From positions 776-64,775 of the forward strand of contig JBAQHW010000144.1 in the NCBI GenBank assembly GCA_049288525.1: 64,000 bases of DNA, given 5' to 3'. This document shows, piece by piece, positions 25,179-47,606 of this stretch (positions are counted from its first letter, which is position 1; every line of letters starts with the position of its first letter). Source of the stretch: Xanthobacteraceae bacterium (GTDB lineage Bacteria > Pseudomonadota > Alphaproteobacteria > Rhizobiales > Xanthobacteraceae). Under the pieces are notes generated by a model. It had not been told where the DNA came from, ran no database searches, and saw only the letters and a program-made list of their open reading frames with translations. The position numbers and the translations under genes were made by a program.

Positions 25179-27569
25179 ATGCCCAGGTGGTTGTCGCGAT
25201 TGTTCGATGCGCAAATGGTGTGGCGCAACTTTCGCCATAACACTGCGATCTCCGCACTCGCCGTCGCGATCGGCTTGGCCGGCGTCCATAAGGTCTATGC
25301 GCAAGCGCAACAGCCGTCGACCTCGCAGGATCAAGAAGCTCCGGCGCAGCAGGTAACGCCGCAATCGTCCGTGACCGCACCCTCCGCCCCGCAAACTCCA
25401 GCCGCGGCTGCGGCGACCGCGGCGCCGACTGCGCCCGCCGCTCGTCGAAGCCAGTTGCCGCAAATCGTCGTGAGCGCGCCAAAGCAAAAGCCGAAGACCA
25501 TGCAACGGCGCACGCCGCCAGCACCGGCGACTGCAGCGGCAACAATTAATCCGACAACGGCCGCCGAAAGAGTTCTCGACGCCAAGATGACTGGGCTCGA
25601 TCAGGCCCGCAACAATCTGCTGCCCACTATTGGCGCTTCGACCTCCACCATCAGCCGCAGCGCGATCGAGAGATTGCCGCAAGGTGACAACACGCCGATC
25701 GACAAGGTTATCCTCCAACTGCCGGGCGTATCCTACGATTCGGCGGTCTCCAATCCTTCTTTCCATGTCCGCAGCGAATACGCCAACGTGCAAATCAGGA
25801 TCAACGGCGTCGTGGTGCCCGAGGGCGTTTCGGCGCTGGGTCCGTTCCTCGATACCAATTTCATCGGCAGCATGTCCCTTCTGACCGGAGCCTTGCCGGC
25901 GGAATATGGCTTGCGCACCGCCGGCGTGCTCGACATCACCAGCCGCGCCTTTGCCGCACCAGGCGGTGAAGTCAGCATTTATGGCGGCAGCCGGCAGACG
26001 TTCACGCCGAGCTTCGATTACGGCGGCGGCGTTGGCAACTCGGAATATTTCGTCAGCGCGCGTGGCAACTGGAACGGTCTCGGGCTGGAGAACCCGACGC
26101 CCGGCTTGAACGCGATCCACGACGAAACCCAGCAAGGCCAGTTCTTCGGTTATGCCTCGACGCTGCTCGACGAGTCGACCCGGTTCAGCGTGATCTCGAC
26201 GGCGTCCTACAGCGCGTTCCAGATTCCAAACACTCCCGGCCAGACACCGATGGGCGATTTTGGACCCGCGACTTTGGATTCAACGACGATCAACGAAAAC
26301 GAATACGACTCCTACTACATGACGATGGCGTCGCTGCAAAAGCACGGCACCGACGGCGATGCGCAACTCTCTGTCTTTTCGCGCTATGCCGAAGTTCACT
26401 TCGTCCCAGACATATTCAACGACTTAGCTTTCAACGACGTCGCCTCCGACGTCATACGGCAAAGCACGCTCACCGGCATGCAGGGCGATGGCTCCTACAT
26501 TGTGAATGACCAGCACACGCTGCGTGCCGGATTCGCGGTGACCGGAGAGCAGACCAATGTCACCAATGCGTCGACGGTGCTGCCGCTCGATGCCATGGGC
26601 AACCCACTACCGACCCCAGAAACCATCACCGACCAGACGTCACTGCTTGGCTGGAACATCGGTACTTATATTCAGGATGAATGGAAGGTTACCAACCAGA
26701 TCACTGTGAATACAGGGCTGCGCTTCGATCAACTATATCAGTTTGTCGATGCCAATCAGCTCAGTCCACGGTTCGCTGTTGTCTATAAGCCGTTCGACGG
26801 CACCACACTTCACGTTGGTTTTGCGCGCTATTTCACGCCGCCTTATCAGGCACAAGCCGCTGCATCCAATCTCGCTTTGTTTGCAAACACGACCAACGCG
26901 CCGCCGTTAACCACCTTGGACGATCCGGTGAAACCCGAACGCTCAAGCTATTACGACGTCGGCATCGACCAGACGGTGTTGCCCGGCCTTACCATGGGGC
27001 TCGACGGCTATTACAAGGATGCGCGAGACATGCTCGATGACGGCCAGTTCGGCTCAGCCCTCGTGCTAACCCAGTTCAATTATGCGCGGGGCTACAGCGA
27101 AGGCGGCGAATTCAAGCTGAAATATACTAACGGCAACTTCAATGCCTATGCCAATTTCACTTACGACATAACAAGAGCTATCGACGTAGAGTCGAATCAA
27201 TATCTCATCGAAGACGAGACCTACCTGAACAATTGGCATTACACAGACGACATGCAGCGCATGACCGGCTCGGCCGGCATGTCGTATCGCATCTACGATA
27301 CGACACTGACTGCGGACATGCTCTACGGCAGCGGCCTGCGTGACGGTGTCGATAATGACGGCCACGCGACGCCCTATGCCGTCGTCAACACGGGCATCGC
27401 ACACGATTTCACGTGGTCGCCAGACTACAAGCCGCTTACTGTGCGCTTCGATGTCGTCAACCTGTTCGATCAGATCTACGAGCTTCGCGACGGCACCGGC
27501 ATCGGCGAGTTCGCGCCGCAATATGGTGCGCGCCGCGGCTACTATGTCGGGCTATCGCAGAAACTCTGA
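25179..27569 (+). CDS. TonB-dependent outer-membrane receptor
   Basis: Signal peptide, an Ala/Pro/Thr/Gln-rich linker, a plug domain (IERLPQGDNTPIDKVILQLPGV), a beta-barrel and a C-terminal aromatic residue (GLSQKL end region, YYVGLSQKL). An alternative start is at 25215. Confidence 0.9.
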   Translation: MPRWLSRLFDAQMVWRNFRHNTAISALAVAIGLAGVHKVYAQAQQPSTSQDQEAPAQQVTPQSSVTAPSAPQTPAAAAATAAPTAPAARRSQLPQIVVSAPKQKPKTMQRRTPPAPATAAATINPTTAAERVLDAKMTGLDQARNNLLPTIGASTSTISRSAIERLPQGDNTPIDKVILQLPGVSYDSAVSNPSFHVRSEYANVQIRINGVVVPEGVSALGPFLDTNFIGSMSLLTGALPAEYGLRTAGVLDITSRAFAAPGGEVSIYGGSRQTFTPSFDYGGGVGNSEYFVSARGNWNGLGLENPTPGLNAIHDETQQGQFFGYASTLLDESTRFSVISTASYSAFQIPNTPGQTPMGDFGPATLDSTTINENEYDSYYMTMASLQKHGTDGDAQLSVFSRYAEVHFVPDIFNDLAFNDVASDVIRQSTLTGMQGDGSYIVNDQHTLRAGFAVTGEQTNVTNASTVLPLDAMGNPLPTPETITDQTSLLGWNIGTYIQDEWKVTNQITVNTGLRFDQLYQFVDANQLSPRFAVVYKPFDGTTLHVGFARYFTPPYQAQAAASNLALFANTTNAPPLTTLDDPVKPERSSYYDVGIDQTVLPGLTMGLDGYYKDARDMLDDGQFGSALVLTQFNYARGYSEGGEFKLKYTNGNFNAYANFTYDITRAIDVESNQYLIEDETYLNNWHYTDDMQRMTGSAGMSYRIYDTTLTADMLYGSGLRDGVDNDGHATPYAVVNTGIAHDFTWSPDYKPLTVRFDVVNLFDQIYELRDGTGIGEFAPQYGARRGYYVGLSQKL

Positions 27570-30466: not shown

Positions 30467-31147
30467 ATGCCGGTCGCGCAGTTCGATCCCCTCGCCGCCT
30501 CACTGTTCAGCTTCCTGGCGATTGCTAGCCTGCTGCTGGCCTTCGTCATGCTCGGCTCACGCTGGCTCAATAATTACCTCTACGCCTTTGCCGCGGAGTC
30601 GTGGATCATCGCAATGCTTTCCGCCATGATCGGATATTACGGCGGCTTCCCGGAGCTCTATCTGATCGCCGTGCTGACGGCTTTGTTCCGTGGTCTGCTG
30701 CTGCCGTATCTAATCTGGCGGATCATCAAACGTCTCGGCGTTGCCCGCGAAATCCATGAAATTCTCGAACCGAGCTCGACGCTGGTCGCCGGCGCTGCCA
30801 GCGTCATCTTTGCGCTGATCGTGTCCTATCACATCGGTCAATCCCTCGGCGTCACCGGCAATGTGGTCGTGCTGGCGCTGACCGTCATGCTGGCGATGAA
30901 GTTGATCGGCTTCCTGATGCTGGCCGCGCGGCATGAGGCGCTGAGCCAGATTCTCGGGCTCCTTGTCCTGGAGAACGGCATCTTTCTCGGCGCCCAGCTT
31001 CTGGTACCCGGCATGCCGACGCTGATCGAGATCGTCATCCTGTTCGATCTGCTGGTCGTCGTCGCCTGCTTCGGCGTTCTCGTCCGCTACCTGCTTGCTC
31101 ATGTCGGCAGCACGAGCAGCCTCGATCTCAACCGGCTGGTAGGCTGA
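30467..31147 (+). CDS. HyfE-like small membrane subunit
   Basis: 226 aa, about 7 TM. Its size and position match HyfE/HycP of Hyf-type operons. ATG 30467 is 2 nt after the upstream stop. Confidence 0.7.
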   Translation: MPVAQFDPLAASLFSFLAIASLLLAFVMLGSRWLNNYLYAFAAESWIIAMLSAMIGYYGGFPELYLIAVLTALFRGLLLPYLIWRIIKRLGVAREIHEILEPSSTLVAGAASVIFALIVSYHIGQSLGVTGNVVVLALTVMLAMKLIGFLMLAARHEALSQILGLLVLENGIFLGAQLLVPGMPTLIEIVILFDLLVVVACFGVLVRYLLAHVGSTSSLDLNRLVG

Positions 31148-37821: not shown

Positions 37822-38631
37822 ATGGACCTGGGGATGACCGGCAAAACGGCGCTCGTCACCGGCGCAAGCGAGGGCATCGGCGAGGCGATCGCGCGCGCCT
37901 TTGCCCGCGAAGGCGTCGACGTCGCGATCTGCGCCCGCCGCAAAGGTCCGCTGGAAGAAACTGCCGCCGAGATCGCCAAGGAGTCCGGCCGCAAGATCGT
38001 CGCCATCCCGGCCGATCTCACCAAGCCCGAGGACGCGGAGAGTCTCGTCCGGCAGGCGCATGCCGCTTTGGGCCGGATCGATATCCTGGTCAACAATGCC
38101 GGCTCGTCGCCGGGCGGCGTGCTCGATCACTTGAGCGAGGCGGATTGGGCGCAGTCATTGCAGCTCAAGTTCATGGGTTATGTGCGCTGCATGAAGCACG
38201 TGCTGCCGATCATGCAGAAGCAGAAAAAGGGCCGCGTGGTCAACCTGATCGGCAATGACGGCGTCAAGGTCTCCTATTGGGAAATTGCGCCGGGCGCCGC
38301 CAATGCCGCGGGGCAGAACTTGACCAAATCGCTGGCCAGTCAATACGGCAAGGACAATATCAGCTTCGTCGTGGTCAATCCCGGGCCGGTGCGCACCGAA
38401 CGCTGGGCCGGGCTGGTCAAGGCGATGGCGCGCGACATGAAGCTTTCGTACGAGGAGGCCGACAAGCTGGCGCCGGCCTCGATCCCGCTCGGCCGTATCG
38501 CCGAGTGCGAGGAGGTCGCCAATCTCGTCACCTATCTCGCCTCCGACCTCGCCTTCTTCGTCAACGGCACCATGGTCGAGATCGACGGCGGCCAGGACAA
38601 AGTGCTGATGGACCGCATGCGCGACCGCTGA
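37822..38631 (+). CDS. Short-chain dehydrogenase/reductase (SDR)
   Basis: TGASEGIGEAIA cofactor motif, NNAG, and a classical SDR fold length of 269 aa. Confidence 0.88.
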   Translation: MDLGMTGKTALVTGASEGIGEAIARAFAREGVDVAICARRKGPLEETAAEIAKESGRKIVAIPADLTKPEDAESLVRQAHAALGRIDILVNNAGSSPGGVLDHLSEADWAQSLQLKFMGYVRCMKHVLPIMQKQKKGRVVNLIGNDGVKVSYWEIAPGAANAAGQNLTKSLASQYGKDNISFVVVNPGPVRTERWAGLVKAMARDMKLSYEEADKLAPASIPLGRIAECEEVANLVTYLASDLAFFVNGTMVEIDGGQDKVLMDRMRDR

Positions 38632-39329: not shown

Positions 39330-39355
39330 TGATCCAGCGGCGGACGCGAAACGTA
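39330..39355 (+). promoter_or_regulatory. ECF sigma-E(ChrR-type)-like promoter TGATCC-N16-CGTA upstream of the DUF2177 gene
   Basis: TGATCC at 39330-39335, a 16-nt spacer, and CGTA at 39352-39355, 37 nt before ATG 39392. The architecture is the same as the two promoters at 43943-44008. Confidence 0.6.
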
Positions 39356-39391: not shown

Positions 39392-39793
39392 ATGACCTAT
39401 TTTGCCGCTTATATTTCGATTCTTGTCGTGTTCGGAGCCATCGATGCGGGATGGCTGCGGATCATGGGCCACGTCCTATATCGGCCGGTACTGGGCGATA
39501 TCCTGCTGCCGGATCTCCGGCTGGCGCCGGCAATCGCGTTCTATCTGCTCTACCCCATCGGTATATTGGTGTTCGCGGTCATTCCCGCTTTGCGCTCCGG
39601 ATCGGCTCTCAACGCGTGCTTGTACGCGGTTTTATTTGGAGCCCTGGCTTACGCCACCTATGATTTGACCAATTACGCGACTTTGCGGAACTGGACGCTA
39701 CAGATCACCATCATCGATATCTGCTACGGCGCGTTGGCCGCAGGCATCGCGGCGACGGCGGCATATTTTGTGGCCCACGCCTTTTCGCCCTGA
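39392..39793 (+). CDS. DUF2177-like integral membrane protein
   Basis: 133 aa, 4 TM (MTYFAAYISILVVFGAIDAGWLRIMG...). The track ORF start at 39272 was trimmed to the first ATG preceding the hydrophobic core. Confidence 0.65.
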   Translation: MTYFAAYISILVVFGAIDAGWLRIMGHVLYRPVLGDILLPDLRLAPAIAFYLLYPIGILVFAVIPALRSGSALNACLYAVLFGALAYATYDLTNYATLRNWTLQITIIDICYGALAAGIAATAAYFVAHAFSP

Positions 39794-40831
39794 TTAAGGC
39801 CGCGGCTGCGACGGCGTAAGGCGATAATGGCTCACGCCCCATTCCTCGCCGCCGGCGTGACCGAACAATCCCATCGTCGCCAGAAAGAACAGCCGCCAGC
39901 GGCGGCGCCAGAGCGCGCCGTCGCGGCCGTAGACGCGCTTAAGGACCGCATTCACTTCATCGGCATGGTCGTCAAACTTTTTCAGCCAATCTGCGGCCGT
40001 GCGTCGGTAATGCTCGCCGTTCCATCGCCATTCCGCGTCGACGGTGAAGCAATCCGGAAATTGCCGGATCAGTCCGTGGCTCGGCATTATGCCGCCGGTG
40101 AAATAATGCTGCGCGATCCAGTCTTCCTTGTCTTCTGCGCGGAAGCGATACGACGCACGCGCATTGCTGAAGACGTGGATGAACATGCGCCCGTCGGCTT
40201 CGAGACTATCGCGCATCCGGGAAAGCAGCGGTCGCCAGTTCGACATGTGCTCGAACATTTCGACCGACACCACGCGATCGAAGCGGCCACTCGGCATAAA
40301 CACATTCATATCGGCAGTAACGACTTCAAGATTAGTCAGGCCCTGAGCTTCGGCGACGCCCGTGATAAAGGCACGCTGCGAATGCGAATTCGACACCGAC
40401 ACGATCTTGGCGGCGCGATAGCGCCGCGCCATCCACAGCGATAGCGAACCCCAGCCGCAGCCGAGTTCGAGAATGCGCTGACCGTCGGCAAGGCCGGCAT
40501 GCGCGGCACTGACGGCGAGCGCGCGCTCCTCGGCTTCGATCAGCGATTCGATACCGTCATCGTAGAGACAGCACGAATATTTGCGCTGGGGCCCAAGCAC
40601 GAGCGCAAAGAAATTTTCGGGGATCTCATAATGCTGCGTATTAGCTGCATCCGTATTAATCGCGATCGGATAGTCCGCCATCCCCGCGGCGAATATGCCG
40701 TCGACATTTTGCGGCGCGACCCGCAGCCGACGCCGGGTCCGCCCGACGAGCCAATCGATCGCCGGCCGCGTTATCGCGTCGGGCCACGGGACGCCCTCGC
40801 CGATGCCGATCATGGATTGCAGAAGCGTCAT
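39794..40831 (-). CDS. Cyclopropane-fatty-acyl-phospholipid-synthase-like SAM-dependent methyltransferase
   Basis: HYEIPENFFALVLGPQRKYSCCLY and the SAM motif ILELGCGWGSL. The start ATG 40831 overlaps the upstream stop (ATGA). The track ORF start at 41131 was rejected. Confidence 0.88.
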   Translation of the reverse strand: MTLLQSMIGIGEGVPWPDAITRPAIDWLVGRTRRRLRVAPQNVDGIFAAGMADYPIAINTDAANTQHYEIPENFFALVLGPQRKYSCCLYDDGIESLIEAEERALAVSAAHAGLADGQRILELGCGWGSLSLWMARRYRAAKIVSVSNSHSQRAFITGVAEAQGLTNLEVVTADMNVFMPSGRFDRVVSVEMFEHMSNWRPLLSRMRDSLEADGRMFIHVFSNARASYRFRAEDKEDWIAQHYFTGGIMPSHGLIRQFPDCFTVDAEWRWNGEHYRRTAADWLKKFDDHADEVNAVLKRVYGRDGALWRRRWRLFFLATMGLFGHAGGEEWGVSHYRLTPSQPRP

Positions 40832-41670
40832 TTGCGGTCTCCAAACCCGCTCCACCAGGCCAGGCGCTGCGGCACCGGAAAAAATGCATTGGTGCGCGCC
40901 TGATAGGCACGAAACGCGCCGACCCGCCGTTCCAGCATATGCGCTTCGAGCGGCGGGATGCCGGAGACATGCACCAGCAGCCAGTACATGCAGAGCGGCC
41001 CTGCCAGCGCGATAAATCCCCACGGATAGCCGCCACCGAAAGCGATCGCGAACAGCGGATAGGCGAGCCAGCCGAACCATTCGAAGAAGTAATTCGGGTG
41101 CCGCGACCATGACCACAGTCCGGCGTCGCAAATCCGATCGCGGTTCTTTGGGTCGGAGCGAAAGTGCCGCAGCTGGAAATCGGCGGCGGCTTCGCCGCCG
41201 ATGCCGACCATCAGGACGACGACGCCGAGGAAATCTTGTGCACCAAGGCCCGGCGATGGATTAAACGCAGCGAGTGTCATTGCCAGCGCCAGCGGTATGC
41301 TGACCAATGCCTGTTTCTGCAACAGCCAGAACATTTGTCGCGACGCATTGTCCCCCCAGTCGCGAATGAGCTTGGCGTAGCGCGGATCGTCGATAATCCC
41401 GACCGTGCGCAGCGCGATATGAGCGCCAAGCCGCAGCGACCAGATCGCGATCAGCCAAGCCACCAGTGCCTGACGCTCCGTTATGCCGCCGAACAACAGC
41501 CATGGCGTCAACGCACCGCCACAGCCGACAACGCCGAGACCGAAAGTCCAGATCGTATCGACCCATCCGGAGTTTCGCGTGCCGCGCCAAACCAGCCAGG
41601 CTCCGGACATGATTGCCGAAAGCGCCGCGCTGACGGCAACAACGACGACTGCGAATTGTTGCGCCGTCAT
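40828..41670 (-). CDS. DUF1295 (steroid-5-alpha-reductase/ICMT-like) membrane protein
   Basis: The C-terminal motif GLWSWSRHPNYFFEWFGW is characteristic. About 6 TM. Confidence 0.8.
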   Translation of the reverse strand: MTAQQFAVVVVAVSAALSAIMSGAWLVWRGTRNSGWVDTIWTFGLGVVGCGGALTPWLLFGGITERQALVAWLIAIWSLRLGAHIALRTVGIIDDPRYAKLIRDWGDNASRQMFWLLQKQALVSIPLALAMTLAAFNPSPGLGAQDFLGVVVLMVGIGGEAAADFQLRHFRSDPKNRDRICDAGLWSWSRHPNYFFEWFGWLAYPLFAIAFGGGYPWGFIALAGPLCMYWLLVHVSGIPPLEAHMLERRVGAFRAYQARTNAFFPVPQRLAWWSGFGDRK

Positions 41671-42608
41671 GGCGTCACAGCCGCGGGCTGCGCCCGACCG
41701 CGGAGCGTTCCGGCCATGAAGCGGTCGGTATCCCGCAACGCCGGCGCGAGGAAGCGGAGCGGGCCGGCGAACGACCCAATGATGGTGAGGTGGCCGACGC
41801 GCGGATAGGTGGCCACATCGGCTTCGTCACCGGACGCGCGCAGGCGCGCCGCAAGGCGCATGGTATTGCCCGAGCCAACCACGTTGTCGTTCGTGCCCGT
41901 CATCAGGAGTGCCGGCGGCGCTCCGGGCGAGACATAAGAGATCGGCTGCGTCGTTGGCCGATTGGCGCCGCCGAATATCGCCTGCAGCATCGGATCGCGC
42001 AGCGGCAGGAAATCATACGGCCCGGAAACCCCGATCAGCCCGGCGAGATCGCGGTCCGGCACGAGGCCGACCTCCTTGAGCCAGCGGGGGTCGAGCGCAA
42101 GCATCGCCGCGATATAGGCGCCGGCCGAATGCCCCATGACAAAAAGCGCGGCGGAGTTGCCGCCGTAGCGCGCGGCGTTGTCACGAGTCCAGCGCATCGC
42201 GTGCGCGCCGTCCTCAAGAAAAGCGGGATAGCGAACCTCGGGGTAAAGCCGATAGTCCGGGACGACGGTCAGATAACCGCGCTGTGCCAGCGCCGCGCCG
42301 AGAAACGTGTAGAGCGCCTTGTCGCCGGTTTGCCACGAGCCGCCGTAAAAGAACACGACAACCGGCGCATCAGTGGCGCCAGCAGGCCGATAGAGGTCGA
42401 GCGTTCGCCGGGGTCCGTCACCGTAAGCAACCGAGCGCGTAATTTCGACGCCGGACGTGGAAACAAAGAAGTTCAAGACCGAGGCAGGAGAGCAGCCGGC
42501 AAGGAGCAAGCTCGCCAGCACGCCGGCGGCCCACGGCGAGCCATGCCGGCCGCCGCACCGTTTGGCGCTCGACCCGGTACCGGCCCGATACTCGCAAGCG
42601 CGCCCCAT
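41667..42608 (-). CDS. Alpha/beta-hydrolase (esterase/lipase) lipoprotein
   Basis: Lipobox LLLAGCS, oxyanion FFYGGSW and nucleophile elbow GHSAGA. It is a paralog of the gene at 53427..54257. Confidence 0.85.
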   Translation of the reverse strand: MGRACEYRAGTGSSAKRCGGRHGSPWAAGVLASLLLAGCSPASVLNFFVSTSGVEITRSVAYGDGPRRTLDLYRPAGATDAPVVVFFYGGSWQTGDKALYTFLGAALAQRGYLTVVPDYRLYPEVRYPAFLEDGAHAMRWTRDNAARYGGNSAALFVMGHSAGAYIAAMLALDPRWLKEVGLVPDRDLAGLIGVSGPYDFLPLRDPMLQAIFGGANRPTTQPISYVSPGAPPALLMTGTNDNVVGSGNTMRLAARLRASGDEADVATYPRVGHLTIIGSFAGPLRFLAPALRDTDRFMAGTLRGRAQPAAVTP

Positions 42609-42617
42609 CGCGGCCGC

Positions 42618-43262
42618 TCAGAGACGGACGAAAGGCTGTAGCAGCCGGCCGACCCAGCTCTGCAGCTCGATATTGCCCTGCAACGCCACCAGGCAAACGC
42701 AAGGCACGCCATCCTCGACGACCGGATTATGCTCGACCAGTTCGTCGGCCTCGTCGAAATCGCCGGCGCCGAAGCGGCCAAAATCGTGTCGGAAGGCACC
42801 CTCGAAAACGCAGGTCCATTCCGTTCCGCTATGCCGGTGACGCGGCAAACGCGTCCCCGCCGCTGCCTTCAACATGAAAACGCGGACGCCATCGTCCGAG
42901 GCGACGTCGACCGAACGCCACTGCACGTTGCAGCCGATCCAACGCCATGAACCCAATGTGTAGGGCGCCAGAGATGCCGGTAACGCACCGGCCTGTGCGC
43001 GCTGCGGGCGGGCACCTTGGCCGGCTTCCGACACTTGCGCGGACACTCGCGCTATGGCGCGCTCCAGCGCGCCGGTGGACATCTCCGCGGGTACAGCCGT
43101 CTCAAGCTGGACGCCGCCGACATTCTCGAATGACGACATCGCCTCCCGGCAATGCGGGCACAGCGACAGGTGCGCGGCAACCACCACCGCACGCGCCTCA
43201 TCAAGCGTGCCGGAGGCGAGCGCCGCCAATGTCAGATCGCTTGGATGATGCGTGATGGTCAT
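42618..43262 (-). CDS. chrR: ChrR-family anti-sigma-E factor (zinc anti-sigma domain plus cupin)
   Basis: HLSLCPHCR zinc motif, a C-terminal cupin (RHRHSGTEWTCVFEGAFRHDFGRFGAGDF) and a QPFVRL end, closely like the Rhodobacter ChrR pattern. Overlaps the sigma gene stop (ATGA-type, 43259-43262). Confidence 0.9.
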   Translation of the reverse strand: MTITHHPSDLTLAALASGTLDEARAVVVAAHLSLCPHCREAMSSFENVGGVQLETAVPAEMSTGALERAIARVSAQVSEAGQGARPQRAQAGALPASLAPYTLGSWRWIGCNVQWRSVDVASDDGVRVFMLKAAAGTRLPRHRHSGTEWTCVFEGAFRHDFGRFGAGDFDEADELVEHNPVVEDGVPCVCLVALQGNIELQSWVGRLLQPFVRL

Positions 43263-43828
43263 GTCGGCTCACCCAGAAGATTGTGCAAACGGGTCATCGC
43301 CAGACGCAGCCGCGATTTGACTGTACCCAGCGGCAGATCGAGAAGCTTGGCGATATCACCGTGGGCGCGGCCTTCGAAGAAGGAAAGCTGAACCACACGG
43401 ACTTGTTCCTCCGGCAGTTCGCGAAGTGCGTCGCGCAGGCGCTGATCGCGCTCCGCGACGTCGAGCGGAGCGTCGGGCCGCTCGGGCGCCTCGGTTTCGA
43501 TGGCCTCATAAAGCGCAAACAGCTTTGCCCGCTTGTCGCGGCGCAACCGGTCCACCCCCAGATTGCGGGCGATCGTGTAAATCCAGGCGGCTGGGCTGGC
43601 GCGCGCCGAATCGAATTGCCCGGCCTTTCGCCACACCATCAGCATCGTATCCTGCGCGATGTCCTCGGCCGCCTCAGCCGCAGCGCCGCGCCGAACCAGC
43701 ATGGCTTTGATGCGGCCGGCATAACATTCGAACAGCGAGGCGAACGCGTCCCGGTCCCCTTCGGTCGCAATCGCGCTGATCCATCGCGCCGGATCGGAAC
43801 CCGAAGCGCTTTCGCCTTTATCGTCCAT
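43259..43828 (-). CDS. rpoE: ECF sigma factor, sigma-E of the ChrR-linked group
   Basis: Region 2 (AEDIAQDTMLMVWRKAGQFD) and region 4 (EQVRVVQLSFFEGRAHGDIAKLLDLPLGTVKSRL). Start set at ATG 43828 (MDDKGES). The track start at 43996 would swallow the promoter. Confidence 0.9.
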   Translation of the reverse strand: MDDKGESASGSDPARWISAIATEGDRDAFASLFECYAGRIKAMLVRRGAAAEAAEDIAQDTMLMVWRKAGQFDSARASPAAWIYTIARNLGVDRLRRDKRAKLFALYEAIETEAPERPDAPLDVAERDQRLRDALRELPEEQVRVVQLSFFEGRAHGDIAKLLDLPLGTVKSRLRLAMTRLHNLLGEPT

Positions 43829-43942
43829 ACGCGCTCCGTGACGGACGCCATCCTGCCGGAACCAAAGCGGCCCGTGGCCGCCCGGTAACGGCCAGGGCGG
43901 CGTCGGCCATTGCCTCGCTATTTCGAGTTGCATGCCCGGGGA

Positions 43943-43968
43943 TACGACCGACGGCAGCATTTGGATCA
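43943..43968 (-). promoter_or_regulatory. Sigma-E-type autoregulatory promoter (TGATCC-N16-CGTA) for the rpoE-chrR operon
   Basis: On the minus strand, TGATCC is at 43968-43963, followed by a 16-nt spacer and CGTA at 43946-43943, ~115 nt upstream of ATG 43828. Confidence 0.65.
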
Positions 43969-43982
43969 GGCCGGCTGGCCGG

Positions 43983-44008
43983 TGATCCAACCCCAAAAAT
44001 CAATCGTA
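43983..44008 (+). promoter_or_regulatory. Sigma-E-type promoter (TGATCC-N16-CGTA) for the divergent FAD-oxidoreductase operon
   Basis: TGATCC at 43983-43988, a 16-nt spacer, and CGTA at 44005-44008, ~60 nt upstream of ATG 44070. Confidence 0.65.
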
Positions 44009-44069
44009 ACTTCGGCGTCATGCAAAAAGCGACCAATCGAACCGGCAAGCCTGCACGCGGAACGGGCGA

Positions 44070-45425
44070 ATGATGCAGCGCAACGCGGGCCGGCAAAAAG
44101 ACATTGCTGTTATCGGCACCGGGATTTCCGGCATGTCGGCGGCGTGGCTGCTCAGCCAAACCCACCGGGTCACCGTATACGAGAGCGACCGCCGTGTCGG
44201 CGGACATTCCAACACCGTTAATGTTGCGACGGCAAACGGACCGATTGCCGTCGATACTGGGTTTATTGTTTATAACGAATTGACCTACCCCAACCTGACC
44301 GCCTTATTCGATCACCTCGGCGTACCGACGCAATTGTCCGACATGTCGCTCGCAGTCTCTCTAGCCGGCGGCGAGCTTGAATATTCCGGCAGCCTGTCCG
44401 GCCTGTTCGCCGACAAGCGCAACCTGCTACGGCCGCGCTTCTGGTCGATGCTGCGCGGCCTGCAACGCTTCTACCGCGAGGCGCCACGCGATCTGGCGAT
44501 GCTCGAACAGATGCACACCACTCTGGGCGAGTATCTTGAGGCCGGCGCCTATGGCGCAGCCTTTCGCGACGATCATCTGCTGCCGATGGCGGCGGCGATC
44601 TGGTCGGCGCCGACCAGCAAGATTCTCAGCTATCCGGCAGCAGCCTTCATCCGCTTTCAGGACAGCCACGGTCTGCTCAAGCTGCGCAATCGGCCACCAT
44701 GGCGCACCGTTTTTGGCGGCAGCCGCGCTTATGTCGAGCGTCTGACGCAATCCTTCGCGGATCGAATCCGCCGTGCGACGGCCGTCACCGCCGTGCGCCG
44801 AAGCGACGACAAAATCGAAGTCCGCGACAGCTCCGGGGCAATCGAGACGTTCGATCACGCGGTCATTGCCAGCCACGCCGATCAAGCCTTGGCAATACTG
44901 GACGACCCGACGGCCGAGGAAAAACGGCTGCTTGGGGCGTTCCACTACTGCGGCAATGTCGCGGCGCTGCATTCCGACGTTACTCTGATGCCGAAACGAC
45001 GCGCGGTGTGGTCGAGCTGGAATCACATCGGCGGCCGCAACGACGGCGATAAATGCGCAACCGTCACCTATTGGATGAACTCCTTGCAGCGCATTCCGCA
45101 GGACACGCCGCTCTTCGTCACGCTCAATCCGCCGCGTGCGCCGCGCGTGGAGCACTACCGCGAGACTTATCACCACCCGCTATTCGATACCGCGGCGATT
45201 TCGGCGCAGCAGCGGCTATGGTCGCTGCAGGGCGTGCGCAACACGTGGTTCTGCGGCGCCTATTTCGGCGCCGGCTTTCATGAAGACGGACTGCAGGCCG
45301 GACTTGCCGTCGCCGAGGCGATCGGCGGTTGTCGCCGGCCATGGACCGTAGCGAACGAATCCGGCCGCATCGCCATCGGCCCCCTGCCCGCGCCGCAATT
45401 ACCGCAAACGGAGCTCGCGGCATGA
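44070..45425 (+). CDS. FAD-dependent oxidoreductase (amine-oxidase/phytoene-desaturase-like)
   Basis: N-terminal dinucleotide fold IAVIGTGISGMSAAWLL...VYESDRRVGGHSNT. 451 aa. Confidence 0.85.
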   Translation: MMQRNAGRQKDIAVIGTGISGMSAAWLLSQTHRVTVYESDRRVGGHSNTVNVATANGPIAVDTGFIVYNELTYPNLTALFDHLGVPTQLSDMSLAVSLAGGELEYSGSLSGLFADKRNLLRPRFWSMLRGLQRFYREAPRDLAMLEQMHTTLGEYLEAGAYGAAFRDDHLLPMAAAIWSAPTSKILSYPAAAFIRFQDSHGLLKLRNRPPWRTVFGGSRAYVERLTQSFADRIRRATAVTAVRRSDDKIEVRDSSGAIETFDHAVIASHADQALAILDDPTAEEKRLLGAFHYCGNVAALHSDVTLMPKRRAVWSSWNHIGGRNDGDKCATVTYWMNSLQRIPQDTPLFVTLNPPRAPRVEHYRETYHHPLFDTAAISAQQRLWSLQGVRNTWFCGAYFGAGFHEDGLQAGLAVAEAIGGCRRPWTVANESGRIAIGPLPAPQLPQTELAA

Positions 45426-46228
45426 GGCTTCGCGAAACTTTGAATTTCCGCTCTGCGTTATACGTCGGATCGGTGATCCACCGGCGGCTGCGGCCGCATG
45501 TGCACCGCCTGCGCTACCGAGTATTTTGGCTGCTGCTCGACCTTGACGAAATCGATCGCTTGAGCAAAAGCCTGCGGCTGTTTTCGCACAACCGATTCAA
45601 TGCCGTCAGTTTCCATGACGCAGATCATGGCGACGACAGCGGCCGCCCGTTGCGCGACCAGGTCGAGCAGCATCTTATCCAAGCCGGCATCGGCTGGAGC
45701 GGCGGCACGATCCGGCTCCTCTGCATGCCGCGAATTTTCGGTTACGGCTTCAACCCGCTGAGTGTCTACTTCTGCCATCACTGCGATGGCCAGCTCGCGG
45801 CCGTGCTCTACGAGGTCCACAATACATTCGGCGAACGCCACAGCTATTTGATAGCGGCCGGCCCCAACGCCGGGGCGGTGCTAGAACAGCAATGCCGCAA
45901 GGTATTTTACGTCTCGCCATTCATGGACATGGCTCTGACGTATCAGTTCCGTGTCGCCATTCCCGGCGAACGCGTCTCAGTCGCGATCAGGGCAGTTGCG
46001 GCGGATGGCGTGATGCTTGCCGCAGTACTAGCGGGACGCCGACAAGACATTTCGGACTTAAACTTGCTGCGACTGCTTGCCACTCATCCGCTGCTGACTT
46101 TGAAGGTCATTGCCGCGATTCACTGGCACGCGCTGCGGATGCTGCTGAAAGGCTATCGCTCGCGCGCCCGACCGGCTCCTCCGGCGCTGCCCGTCACCAG
46201 CGTGGACCTCGGGGGCCGATCGCCATGA
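45422..46228 (+). CDS. DUF1365 protein
   Basis: YVGSVIHRRLRPHVHRLRYRVFWLLLDLDEID...FHDADHG is the DUF1365 pattern. ATGA overlap with the upstream stop. Confidence 0.8.
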   Translation: MRLRETLNFRSALYVGSVIHRRLRPHVHRLRYRVFWLLLDLDEIDRLSKSLRLFSHNRFNAVSFHDADHGDDSGRPLRDQVEQHLIQAGIGWSGGTIRLLCMPRIFGYGFNPLSVYFCHHCDGQLAAVLYEVHNTFGERHSYLIAAGPNAGAVLEQQCRKVFYVSPFMDMALTYQFRVAIPGERVSVAIRAVAADGVMLAAVLAGRRQDISDLNLLRLLATHPLLTLKVIAAIHWHALRMLLKGYRSRARPAPPALPVTSVDLGGRSP

Positions 46229-47451
46229 GCTTTTCCAATCCCTCCTATCCATCGCACGACCGCGCCGGCAGAGCGCGGCGGCGGCCAAGCATGATTGGCC
46301 GGTTGCTCGACCGCTCGCTGCCGCACTTGCAAACCGGACGACTCGAAATCGCGTTGCCGAACATGGCTATTGTCGCGCGCCGCGGCGACGGCGCCGGACC
46401 GGAGGCAATACTAACGATGCGACGTTGGCGTGCGCTGTGGCGGTTGCTATCCGAGGGCGAGGACGGTTTCTGCAACGGCTATATCGACGGCGACTGGACC
46501 ACGCCGGACCTCGTGAAACTTCTCGATCTCGGCGCTGGCAACGAAAGCGCCCTCGCCCCGCAAACCAAGAAGTGGCTGCTCAGCTTCCTGCGCAACCGTA
46601 TAGGCCACGCGCTCCACGCCAATACGCGCCGCGGCAGCCGCCGTAACATCGCCGCGCACTACGATCTCGGCAACGATTTTTTCGGGCCGTGGCTCGACAG
46701 TGGCATGAATTATTCTGCGGCGCTCTACGCTGGTGACGAGACACTCGAGCAGGCGCAGGACCGGAAACTCGATCGGATCGGAGAGCTTCTGCGACTGCGC
46801 GGCGGCGAGACCATATTGGAGATCGGCTGCGGCTGGGGCGCGTTGGCTGAGAGGCTGATACGGCATCATGGCGCGTCGGTGCGCGGCATAACGCTATCGA
46901 CCGAGCAACTGCGTTACGCTACGGCGCGCTTAGCCGCTGAAATTCAAGATGGCCGCGCCGACATGCGGCTGCAGGACTACCGCGACGTCACCGGCCGCTT
47001 CGACCGCATCGCTTCGATCGAAATGGTCGAGGCGGTCGGCGAGCGTTATTGGCCGGTTTATTTCGCAAAACTCCGCGCCTGCCTCGCTACAGGCGGCATC
47101 GCGCTCTTGCAAGCCATCACCATCGACGACACGCGCTTCTCGCAATACCGCAAGCGTCCCGATTTCATCCAGCGCCACATTTTTCCCGGCGGCATGCTGC
47201 CGACAAGCGCGATCCTCGAACGCGAAGCGGCCCGCGCCGGGCTGAAGCTCACGCATCACCAATCGTTCGGCGCCAGCTACGAGCGGACCTTGCACGAATG
47301 GCGCCGCCGCTTCCTGCAGACGCGACCGAAGCTCGAAGCCTTGAAAGTAGACGCCCGTTTTCAGCGTCTGTGGGACTATTATCTGGCCTATTGCGAAGTC
47401 GGCTTTCGTCATCGCGTCGTCGATGTGGGCTTCTTTCAGTTTCACGGCTAA
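46225..47451 (+). CDS. Second CFA-synthase-like SAM-dependent methyltransferase
   Basis: IAAHYDLGNDFFGPWLDSGMNYSAALY and the SAM motif ILEIGCGWGALA, with C-terminal FQRLWDYYLAYCEVGF. ATGA overlap with the upstream stop. Confidence 0.88.
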   Translation: MSFSNPSYPSHDRAGRARRRPSMIGRLLDRSLPHLQTGRLEIALPNMAIVARRGDGAGPEAILTMRRWRALWRLLSEGEDGFCNGYIDGDWTTPDLVKLLDLGAGNESALAPQTKKWLLSFLRNRIGHALHANTRRGSRRNIAAHYDLGNDFFGPWLDSGMNYSAALYAGDETLEQAQDRKLDRIGELLRLRGGETILEIGCGWGALAERLIRHHGASVRGITLSTEQLRYATARLAAEIQDGRADMRLQDYRDVTGRFDRIASIEMVEAVGERYWPVYFAKLRACLATGGIALLQAITIDDTRFSQYRKRPDFIQRHIFPGGMLPTSAILEREAARAGLKLTHHQSFGASYERTLHEWRRRFLQTRPKLEALKVDARFQRLWDYYLAYCEVGFRHRVVDVGFFQFHG

Positions 47452-47606
47452 GTAGCGAAAAGCACGTGGGTGACAAATCGTCCGCCGCCTAGCATATCCC
47501 TTGGCAAGACCTGCACCTTCATTATAGTCGGCGCCGCAAACGCGCGGGCAGCAGAAAGGAATTTTGCGGCCGAAAGACGCGTTGGGTCAGACGGAGGGAT
47601 GGGACA

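Follow-up and report, generated by a model that had tools for sequence, protein, structure and literature searches.

Gene content and regulator of the locus

We analysed a 64,000-nt stretch of contig JBAQHW010000144.1 from a Xanthobacteraceae bacterium (the window, below), in which an rpoE-chrR pair, encoding a sigma factor (sigma-E) and its anti-sigma factor, heads one arm of a compact block of lipid genes, while a second arm runs divergently from it. On the comparisons described below, the block is very probably an island under sigma-E/ChrR control in which the known pathway to mono- and dimethyl furan fatty acids (FuFA) is complete.

The leftward arm consists of rpoE, chrR, an esterase gene, a DUF1295 gene and a gene for a 345-aa methylase; the rightward arm consists of genes for a flavin adenine dinucleotide (FAD) protein, a DUF1365 protein and a 408-aa methylase (Table 1). 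This is the gene content and order that a preliminary description of the same DNA had given, and the open reading frames (ORFs) and domain matches bear it out. Every junction was read in the sequence, and the tight packing claimed there is real: the ATGA overlaps, each of 4 nt, lie at 43259-43262, 41667-41670 and 40828-40831 in the left arm and at 45422-45425 and 46225-46228 in the right arm, and chrR is separated from the esterase gene by 9 nt (GCGGCCGCG).

Table 1. Genes and putative promoters of the block, in window coordinates.
Feature	Coordinates	Strand	Basis
DUF2177 small membrane protein, 133 aa	39392..39793	+	PF09945, 132 bits
FufM-type CMAS-family S-adenosylmethionine (SAM) methylase, 345 aa	39794..40831	-	domain search and orthology
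DUF1295 polytopic membrane protein, 280 aa	40828..41670	-	PF06966, 210 bits
Lipoprotein alpha/beta-hydrolase esterase, 313 aa, family IV / BD-FAE type	41667..42608	-	PF20434 and PF07859
ChrR anti-sigma factor, 214 aa, zinc anti-sigma and cupin domains	42618..43262	-	TIGR02451
RpoE extracytoplasmic function (ECF) sigma factor (sigma-E), 189 aa from ATG at 43828	43259..43828	-	Sigma70_r2, r4_2 and ECF domains
UfaD, FAD amine-oxidase-type protein, 451 aa	44070..45425	+	PF01593 and PF13450
UfaO, DUF1365 protein, 268 aa	45422..46228	+	PF07103, 274 bits
UfaM-clade CMAS-family SAM methylase, 408 aa	46225..47451	+	orthology and tree
Sigma-E-type promoter facing rpoE, autoregulatory, TGATCC-N16-CGTA	43943..43968	-	
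Sigma-E-type promoter facing ufaD, TGATCC-N16-CGTA, 61 nt before its ATG	43983..44008	+	
Sigma-E-type promoter, TGATCC-N16-CGTA, 36 nt before DUF2177 ATG	39330..39355	+	

By their domains, the products of rpoE and chrR are classified as an ECF11-type sigma-E/ChrR pair. RpoE matches PF04542, PF08281 and PF07638 (region 2 and region 4 domains) and is 44-46% identical to the chrR-adjacent sigma factor of the Rhodopseudomonas palustris-like genome introduced below. The longest rpoE ORF begins at a TTG at 43996; because the family match begins only at its residue 71, we placed the start at the ATG at 43828, which would give a normal 189-aa ECF sigma factor. ChrR scores 196.5 bits against TIGR02451 (cut-off 124.5), carries a cupin domain (PF12973, 51 bits) and a zf-HC2 match, and aligns over its full length to ChrR of Rhodobacter (Cereibacter) sphaeroides (2Z2S/2Q1Z, E 6e-37). 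In the alignment to 2Z2S_B the zinc ligands of the anti-sigma domain (H6, H31, C35 and C38) are kept, and so are the cupin ligands HxHxxxE...H (HRHSGTE and EH), together with a C-terminal CxC. The same genome has two more ChrR-type cupin matches outside the window (contigs C91:2587-2847 and C149:19301-19615) and, on contig C363, a sigma-E paralog with 40% identity to the R. palustris sigma factor; further anti-sigma systems of the ChrR kind may exist in it.

Correspondence with the tested furan fatty acid enzymes

The enzymes of furan fatty acid synthesis have been tested in R. sphaeroides and R. palustris (PMC7380195, Lemke et al. 2020): UfaM (RSP2144/RPA2569), UfaD (RSP1091/RPA2571), UfaO (RSP1090/RPA2570) and FufM (RPA0924), which makes the dimethyl furan acid and is sufficient alone in vitro. 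In the same work RSP1087, RSP1088 and RSP1089, the last a 402-aa protein, were dispensable for furan fatty acid synthesis. The nearest homologs of the 345-aa methylase are named Xanthobacteraceae, a family that in that naming also holds Rhodopseudomonas, and a protein search found a homolog in 19/19 genomes of one Xanthobacteraceae genus. To locate the tested R. palustris genes, we used the deletion primers from the supplement of PMC7380195 as sequence tags. One complete genome of 5.32 Mb (G376) matches two of the four fufM-locus tags exactly and the other two with 1 and 4 mismatches; at the ufaM, ufaO, ufaD and RPA3082 loci, 12 of the 16 tags are exact. These matches indicate that the genome is R. 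palustris CGA009-like and that the tags mark the tested genes. An exact 22-mer across the inferred RPA0923/RPA0924 junction had no match in the genome contigs, a representative genome differing from it by 1 base, and mismatch-tolerant primer-pattern searches of 400 family and 19 genus genomes returned only out-of-frame chance matches. The RPA3082 (Cfa) ortholog of G376 appears as two overlapping ORFs (locus L059:6292-7642), which suggests a frameshift.

The 345-aa methylase is a reciprocal best hit of FufM (RPA0924), with 56.9% identity over 341 aa, and the DUF1295 protein and RPA0923, which adjoins FufM, are best hits in both directions at 55%. Among the sequences compared, the FAD protein pairs in both directions with UfaD (RPA2571; 48.9% over 425 aa) and the DUF1365 protein, single-copy in its genome, with UfaO (RPA2570; 48%). 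The 408-aa methylase is a reciprocal best hit of UfaM (RPA2569; 41.7%, 294 bits) and is encoded at the same operon position. By orthology, then, the right arm is identified as ufaD-ufaO-ufaM and the left-arm 345-aa methylase as FufM, with the DUF1295 protein assigned to it as RPA0923 is to RPA0924 in R. palustris.

Ortholog mapping had been proposed as a check in the preliminary description; run here against R. palustris, it settles the gene-to-step assignment, and with the ChrR family match it upholds the core idea of an RpoE/ChrR locus carrying furan fatty acid genes. The further claim that the FAD protein, DUF1365 and DUF1295 belong to the conserved core of the R. sphaeroides regulon holds for the first two (UfaD and UfaO) but not for DUF1295, which is not among RSP1087-1091 according to the cited papers. 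In a comparison table for Pseudomonas syringae, RSP1087 is paired with short-chain dehydrogenases and RSP1088 with a lipoprotein (PMC5507510).

To separate the two methylases from canonical cyclopropane synthase (Cfa), we asked for a score above the NCBIfam equivalog cut-off and for the bicarbonate-site residues C139, E239, H266 and Y317. The canonical Cfa of this genome, an ortholog of RPA3082, lies on another contig and scores 643 bits (600-bit cut-off). The island methylases score 248 (408-aa protein) and 131 bits against NF008686 (Cfa; 400-bit cut-off). Thus, both share the CMAS fold family and the SAM-binding core with Escherichia coli Cfa (PDB 6BQC) but fall below the Cfa equivalog cut-off. 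At the E. coli Cfa bicarbonate-site positions the 408-aa protein has C139A and H266Q, which sets it apart from canonical Cfa, and R. palustris UfaM has S and Q at C139 and H266; the two proteins also have the motifs IEMxEAVGE and QAITI in common. The 345-aa methylase lacks the N-terminal ~100 aa (the lipid-binding domain) of Cfa and UfaM. In a maximum-likelihood tree, 37 in-cluster methylases, including the 408-aa protein and R. palustris UfaM, form one clade apart from Cfa (support 100/95), and the FufM type forms a distant clade of its own (100/100). The two methyltransferases of the island are thus distinct, as had been claimed. The reference UfaM in the tree and in the comparison of the 408-aa protein was that of R. 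palustris. A CfaB-like cyclopropane synthase gene in the same genome is interrupted by an in-frame TGA and reads as two ORFs (C212:11265-12815; L018:1330-2880, minus strand); it could be a pseudogene or an assembly error.

Promoters and layout of the block among relatives

The sigma-E consensus TGATCC-N16-CGTA was derived from chromatin immunoprecipitation sequencing in P. syringae and is reported to be similar to the Rhodobacter and Caulobacter promoters (PMC5507510). The window holds five TGATCC/CGTA matches against 0.34 expected, and three of them front transcription units of the island. The rpoE-facing element is present in 41/43 related divergent regions and the ufaD-facing one in 35/43, with both in 35/43. 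The spacers of these promoters vary freely and are unrelated among the 43 regions; elements that are kept while their spacers vary give good comparative support for a promoter function. With the strict pattern, the element upstream of DUF2177 was found in 21/51 related loci. The two remaining matches in the window, at 25779-25803 and 30581-30608 (both minus strand), are off-consensus, with N15 and N18 spacers, and are probably chance matches; a 200-aa ORF lacking a Pfam match begins 12 nt after the first.

Genome-wide, TGATCC-N15-17-CGTA occurs at 17 sites, against 1 for the reversed control. The ORFs that follow the sites outside the island (cytochrome oxidase II, a glyoxalase-type dioxygenase, a glutathione S-transferase fragment, a solute-binding protein and a ribbon-helix-helix protein) are unrelated or unassignable, and we called no further regulon members because spurious long ORFs cover most of the sites in this GC-rich genome. 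One of these sites, a TGATCC-N15-CGTA on contig C184 (3442-3466, minus strand), lies 25 nt before a 351-aa ORF of the glyoxalase/extradiol-dioxygenase type; since one of the strong sigma-E targets of P. syringae is a glyoxalase gene, this ORF may, by analogy, be a real extra member of the regulon.

At its left edge the block ends with the DUF2177 gene, which is convergent with the fufM gene. The stop codons of the two abut, the DUF2177 TGA at 39791-39793 and the fufM-type TAA at 39796-39794 on the minus strand, with zero intergenic bases, so that sigma-E-driven transcripts of the two genes would have to overlap or collide. Further left, a gene for a short-chain dehydrogenase, the protein type paired with RSP1087, lies at 37822-38631 and has no sigma-E motif. 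On the right, the block is bounded by a tripartite ATP-independent periplasmic (TRAP) transporter operon from 47607, preceded by a sigma-70-like site at 47501-47528, the only such site found in the scan. Within the island, the scan for terminators and sigma-70 promoters stayed at chance level.

To place this layout among relatives, the 345-aa protein was searched against one genome per species, which gave more than 586 loci, and the best 80 were analysed; upstream genes were counted in the 67 of them with at least 7.5 kb of upstream sequence. DUF1295 directly precedes the methylase in 63/67 loci, and rpoE-chrR precedes the DUF1295-fufM pair in 43/67. Divergent ufaD-ufaO genes are present in 50/67, accompanied in 35/67 by a methylase of the 408-aa type, and the esterase stands between chrR and DUF1295 in 19/67. 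Among all 80 loci, DUF2177 lies just downstream of fufM in 51, convergently in 42, and the complete set including the esterase occurs in 14. The organisms with related loci include metagenome-recovered Xanthobacteraceae, Pseudolabrys, Bradyrhizobium, Mesorhizobium, Rhizobium, Bosea, Filomicrobium, Methylocystaceae, Acetobacteraceae and Rhodopila. The compact layout is thus ordinary, being common in many Alphaproteobacteria: the physical fusion of the lipid genes to their regulator, stressed in the preliminary description, is true here but not peculiar to this genome, and in R. sphaeroides too the RSP1091-1087 operon diverges from rpoE-chrR (PMC3546557).

The closest characterised systems differ from the island in arrangement. 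R. sphaeroides (RSP1092-1093) shares with it the ECF sigma factor, a ChrR with all zinc ligands, ufaD-ufaO divergent from rpoE-chrR, and furan fatty acid synthesis under sigma-E. In that species, however, ufaM lies elsewhere, beside a photolyase gene, whereas here it is the third gene of the divergent operon; here, moreover, fufM, DUF1295 and the esterase gene are appended to rpoE-chrR, RSP1087- or RSP1088-type genes were not recognised in the operon, and the genome yielded neither photolyase nor photosynthesis genes. R. palustris CGA009 shares the family (Xanthobacteraceae, in the naming of the closest hits), the ufaD-ufaO-ufaM order (RPA2571-2569), the DUF1295-fufM pair with its 4-nt ATGA overlap, and five best-hit proteins at 42-57% identity. 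In the R. palustris-like genome, unlike here, where all form one block, rpoE-chrR, RPA0923-fufM and ufaDOM lie at ~0.60, 1.01 and 2.73 Mb in unrelated contexts. The regulon of P. syringae DC3000 (PSPTO_1043/1042) shares the TGATCC-N16-CGTA promoter, the FAD-DUF1365-cfa trio and an esterase/lipase target, but its regulator is encoded apart from the lipid genes, at a locus of its own, and a photolyase gene heads the operon. As summarised in later papers, the core regulon that sigma-E/ChrR controls in R. sphaeroides comprises rpoE, chrR, RSP1087, RSP1088, RSP1090, RSP1091, phrB and cfaS; in the genome studied here the regulon may comprise no more than the lipid module.

Regulator, promoter consensus, enzymes and divergent layout are already published, and the window adds little to them alone. 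What the primer-anchored ortholog map adds is that many non-phototrophic soil alphaproteobacteria carry all four furan enzymes in one sigma-E/ChrR block. In the cited literature we did not find described the placement of fufM inside an autoregulated rpoE-chrR operon.

Proposed pathway, alternatives and companion genes

By analogy with R. sphaeroides, ChrR would hold sigma-E through its zinc anti-sigma domain in the resting state, and singlet oxygen or organic hydroperoxides would trigger the turnover of ChrR. To judge from the conserved promoters, the freed sigma-E would then transcribe rpoE-chrR-esterase-DUF1295-fufM, ufaD-ufaO-ufaM and the DUF2177 gene. Going by orthology, UfaM (a predicted cis-vaccenate 11-methyltransferase) would place a methyl group onto phospholipid-bound vaccenate to give 11Me-12t-18:1, UfaD would desaturate this to 11Me-10t,12t-18:2, UfaO would close the furan ring with O2 to give 9M5-FuFA, and FufM would add the second methyl group, converting 9M5-FuFA to 9D5-FuFA. 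Furan fatty acids act in the membrane as scavengers of singlet oxygen and radicals, and in R. sphaeroides the genes for their synthesis are also needed for full sigma-E activation; since the pathway here would sit in an autoregulated regulon, synthesis and activation could form a positive feedback loop.

Several points weigh against this reading. Every functional step is inferred for this organism. The 408-aa protein is no more than 42% identical to the UfaM tested in R. palustris, and RSP1089, the R. sphaeroides methylase encoded at this operon position, is dispensable for furan fatty acid synthesis, the UfaM of that species (RSP2144) being encoded elsewhere (PMC7380195). In the R. palustris-like genome the strict sigma-E motif was found only at rpoE, not before ufaD or RPA0923, and with the loci dispersed in this way sigma-E control of fufM is not universal. 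Furthermore, searches of the 96.5% complete genome gave no match to photolyase (PF00875), a core-regulon member that is seemingly absent, nor to the photosynthetic reaction centre (PF00124). The host is thus probably non-phototrophic, as had been supposed, and, with photosynthesis and photolyase genes apparently lacking, singlet oxygen produced by light need not be the natural inducer: lipid peroxidation or hydroperoxides may serve equally.

A serious alternative, to which we give somewhat less than an even chance, is accordingly that the module answers organic hydroperoxides, metals or ultraviolet A light, as in Caulobacter, and is a general defence against membrane peroxidation rather than a singlet-oxygen response. 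Besides the missing reaction-centre and photolyase genes, it is favoured by the best NCBIfam model for ChrR, the Caulobacter-type regulator responsive to cadmium, peroxide and UV (227 bits, below its 300-bit cut-off), and by the activation of sigma-E by tert-butyl hydroperoxide in both R. sphaeroides and Caulobacter (PMC3546557). Conversely, the singlet-oxygen route is reported to need the ChrR cupin domain (PMC6852236), which here is intact and retains every ligand, and humic sensitisers also yield singlet oxygen in soils and waters (PMC3965437). The two signals are not mutually exclusive.

The role of DUF1295 raises another question. The DUF1295 gene overlaps fufM by the 4-nt ATGA here, and the same offset was seen in 24/40 relatives checked. 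A search of proteins above 604 aa related to the 345-aa methylase turned up 34 protein clusters in which DUF1295 is fused to a FufM-type methylase; they stem from Gammaproteobacteria, Desulfobacterota, Bacteroidota and others, and their DUF1295 portions show 30-61% identity. A single cluster carries the two parts in the opposite order, and another is an esterase-DUF1295-methylase fusion. Adjacency and fusion argue that DUF1295 is functionally tied to FufM. Its structural model (predicted local distance difference test, pLDDT, 95) finds its best Foldseek matches in the sterol reductase MaSR1 (4QUV) and steroid 5-alpha-reductase (7BW1, 7C83), less so in isoprenylcysteine carboxyl methyltransferase (ICMT), with weak E-values (1e-3 to 0.3) and high probabilities, and the motif SRHPNYF is invariant in the family. 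Chain G of 8XKU (285 aa, from the Arabidopsis Ycf2-FtsHi plastid motor complex) matches the model roughly as closely as the sterol reductases do (TM-score 0.52, probability 0.98, rank 5), and that complex may contain a DUF1295-like subunit.

Modelled on sterol C-methylase with an ERG4-type reductase, or on BfaB with BfaA, the 345-aa methylase and DUF1295 could instead be a methylation-plus-reduction unit acting on another lipid, for example to form a saturated methyl branch, so that the island would make only the monomethyl furan acid and that other lipid. The fold of the NADPH-dependent membrane C=C reductases (4QUV, 7BW1) with the invariant motif, and the recurrence of the fusions in several phyla, fit such a unit, and the methylation of a furan ring needs no reductase, FufM alone being enough in vitro (PMC7380195). 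We nevertheless consider it improbable: over its full length the 345-aa protein pairs, as reciprocal best hit (57%), with the enzyme that makes 9D5-FuFA, and the DUF1295 protein is the ortholog of the gene product adjoining that enzyme (RPA0923), so that the same pair coexists with proven FufM activity.

It is about as improbable that the 408-aa methylase is an RSP1089-type paralog rather than UfaM, with the first step performed by another gene or by none and the island not self-sufficient: the modest identity (42%) and the operon position of RSP1089, whose deletion had no effect on furan fatty acids (PMC7380195), speak for it, but the only other CMAS genes of the genome are the canonical Cfa and the split CfaB-like gene (175 and 158 bits against R. 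palustris UfaM, the 408-aa protein reaching 294), deletion of RPA3082 caused no significant change in phospholipid fatty acids in R. palustris (PMC7380195), UfaM is the third gene of ufaD-ufaO-ufaM operons in R. palustris and also in Halomonas (PMC7380195, PMC12089945), where the in-cluster methylase makes 11-methyl-octadec-12-enoate (PMC12089945), the in-cluster cfa of P. syringae is the best match of RSP2144 (PMC5507510, Table 2), and the 408-aa protein and R. palustris UfaM share both a clade (100/95) and the departures from Cfa at C139 and H266.

With the complete furan pathway as the preferred reading, the remaining interest lies in its three companions, DUF1295, DUF2177 and the lipoprotein esterase, and above all in the DUF1295-FufM link. 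In Chlamydomonas, the SAK1-dependent genes induced by singlet oxygen include DUF1295, DUF2177, two CFA-like genes (CFA1 and CFA2) and DUF1365 (PMC4067076, Table 5). This is a eukaryotic nuclear regulon with a different regulator; the co-induction is nonetheless independent support that DUF1295 and DUF2177 belong to the response. The esterase, whose closest relative of solved structure is 4ZRS, combines the nucleophile motif GHSAG with YGG where its relatives have HGG, and has an N-terminal lipobox LLAGC (Cys39) that agrees with the secretion assumed in the preliminary description. In Bosea and Sphingomonas it occupies other positions of the cluster, and in P. syringae the esterase/lipase PSPTO_4843 is a sigma-E target (PMC5507510).

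We tentatively suggest, while regarding it as rather doubtful, that DUF1295, DUF2177 and the esterase are uncharacterised working parts of a sigma-E-controlled furan fatty acid metabolism. On its modelled fold, DUF1295 would then partner FufM as an NAD(P)H-dependent, ene-reductase-like membrane protein, possibly reducing the reactive dioxo-ene products of furan lipids that have trapped singlet oxygen, and the esterase would free acyl chains, spent or signalling ones, at the periplasmic face. The module, if this were true, would produce a sacrificial antioxidant lipid, use it and clear it away, and might also generate a signal for ChrR turnover; the companions are in any case concrete targets for the study of furan lipid turnover or of furan lipid signalling to ChrR.

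Finally, algal and dinoflagellate proteins of 1100-1800 aa (P0129, P0148, P0162, P0163, P0176 and P0179) carry UfaO-, UfaD-, UfaM- and FufM-type domains in one chain, and some of them also carry a fatty-acid desaturase domain.

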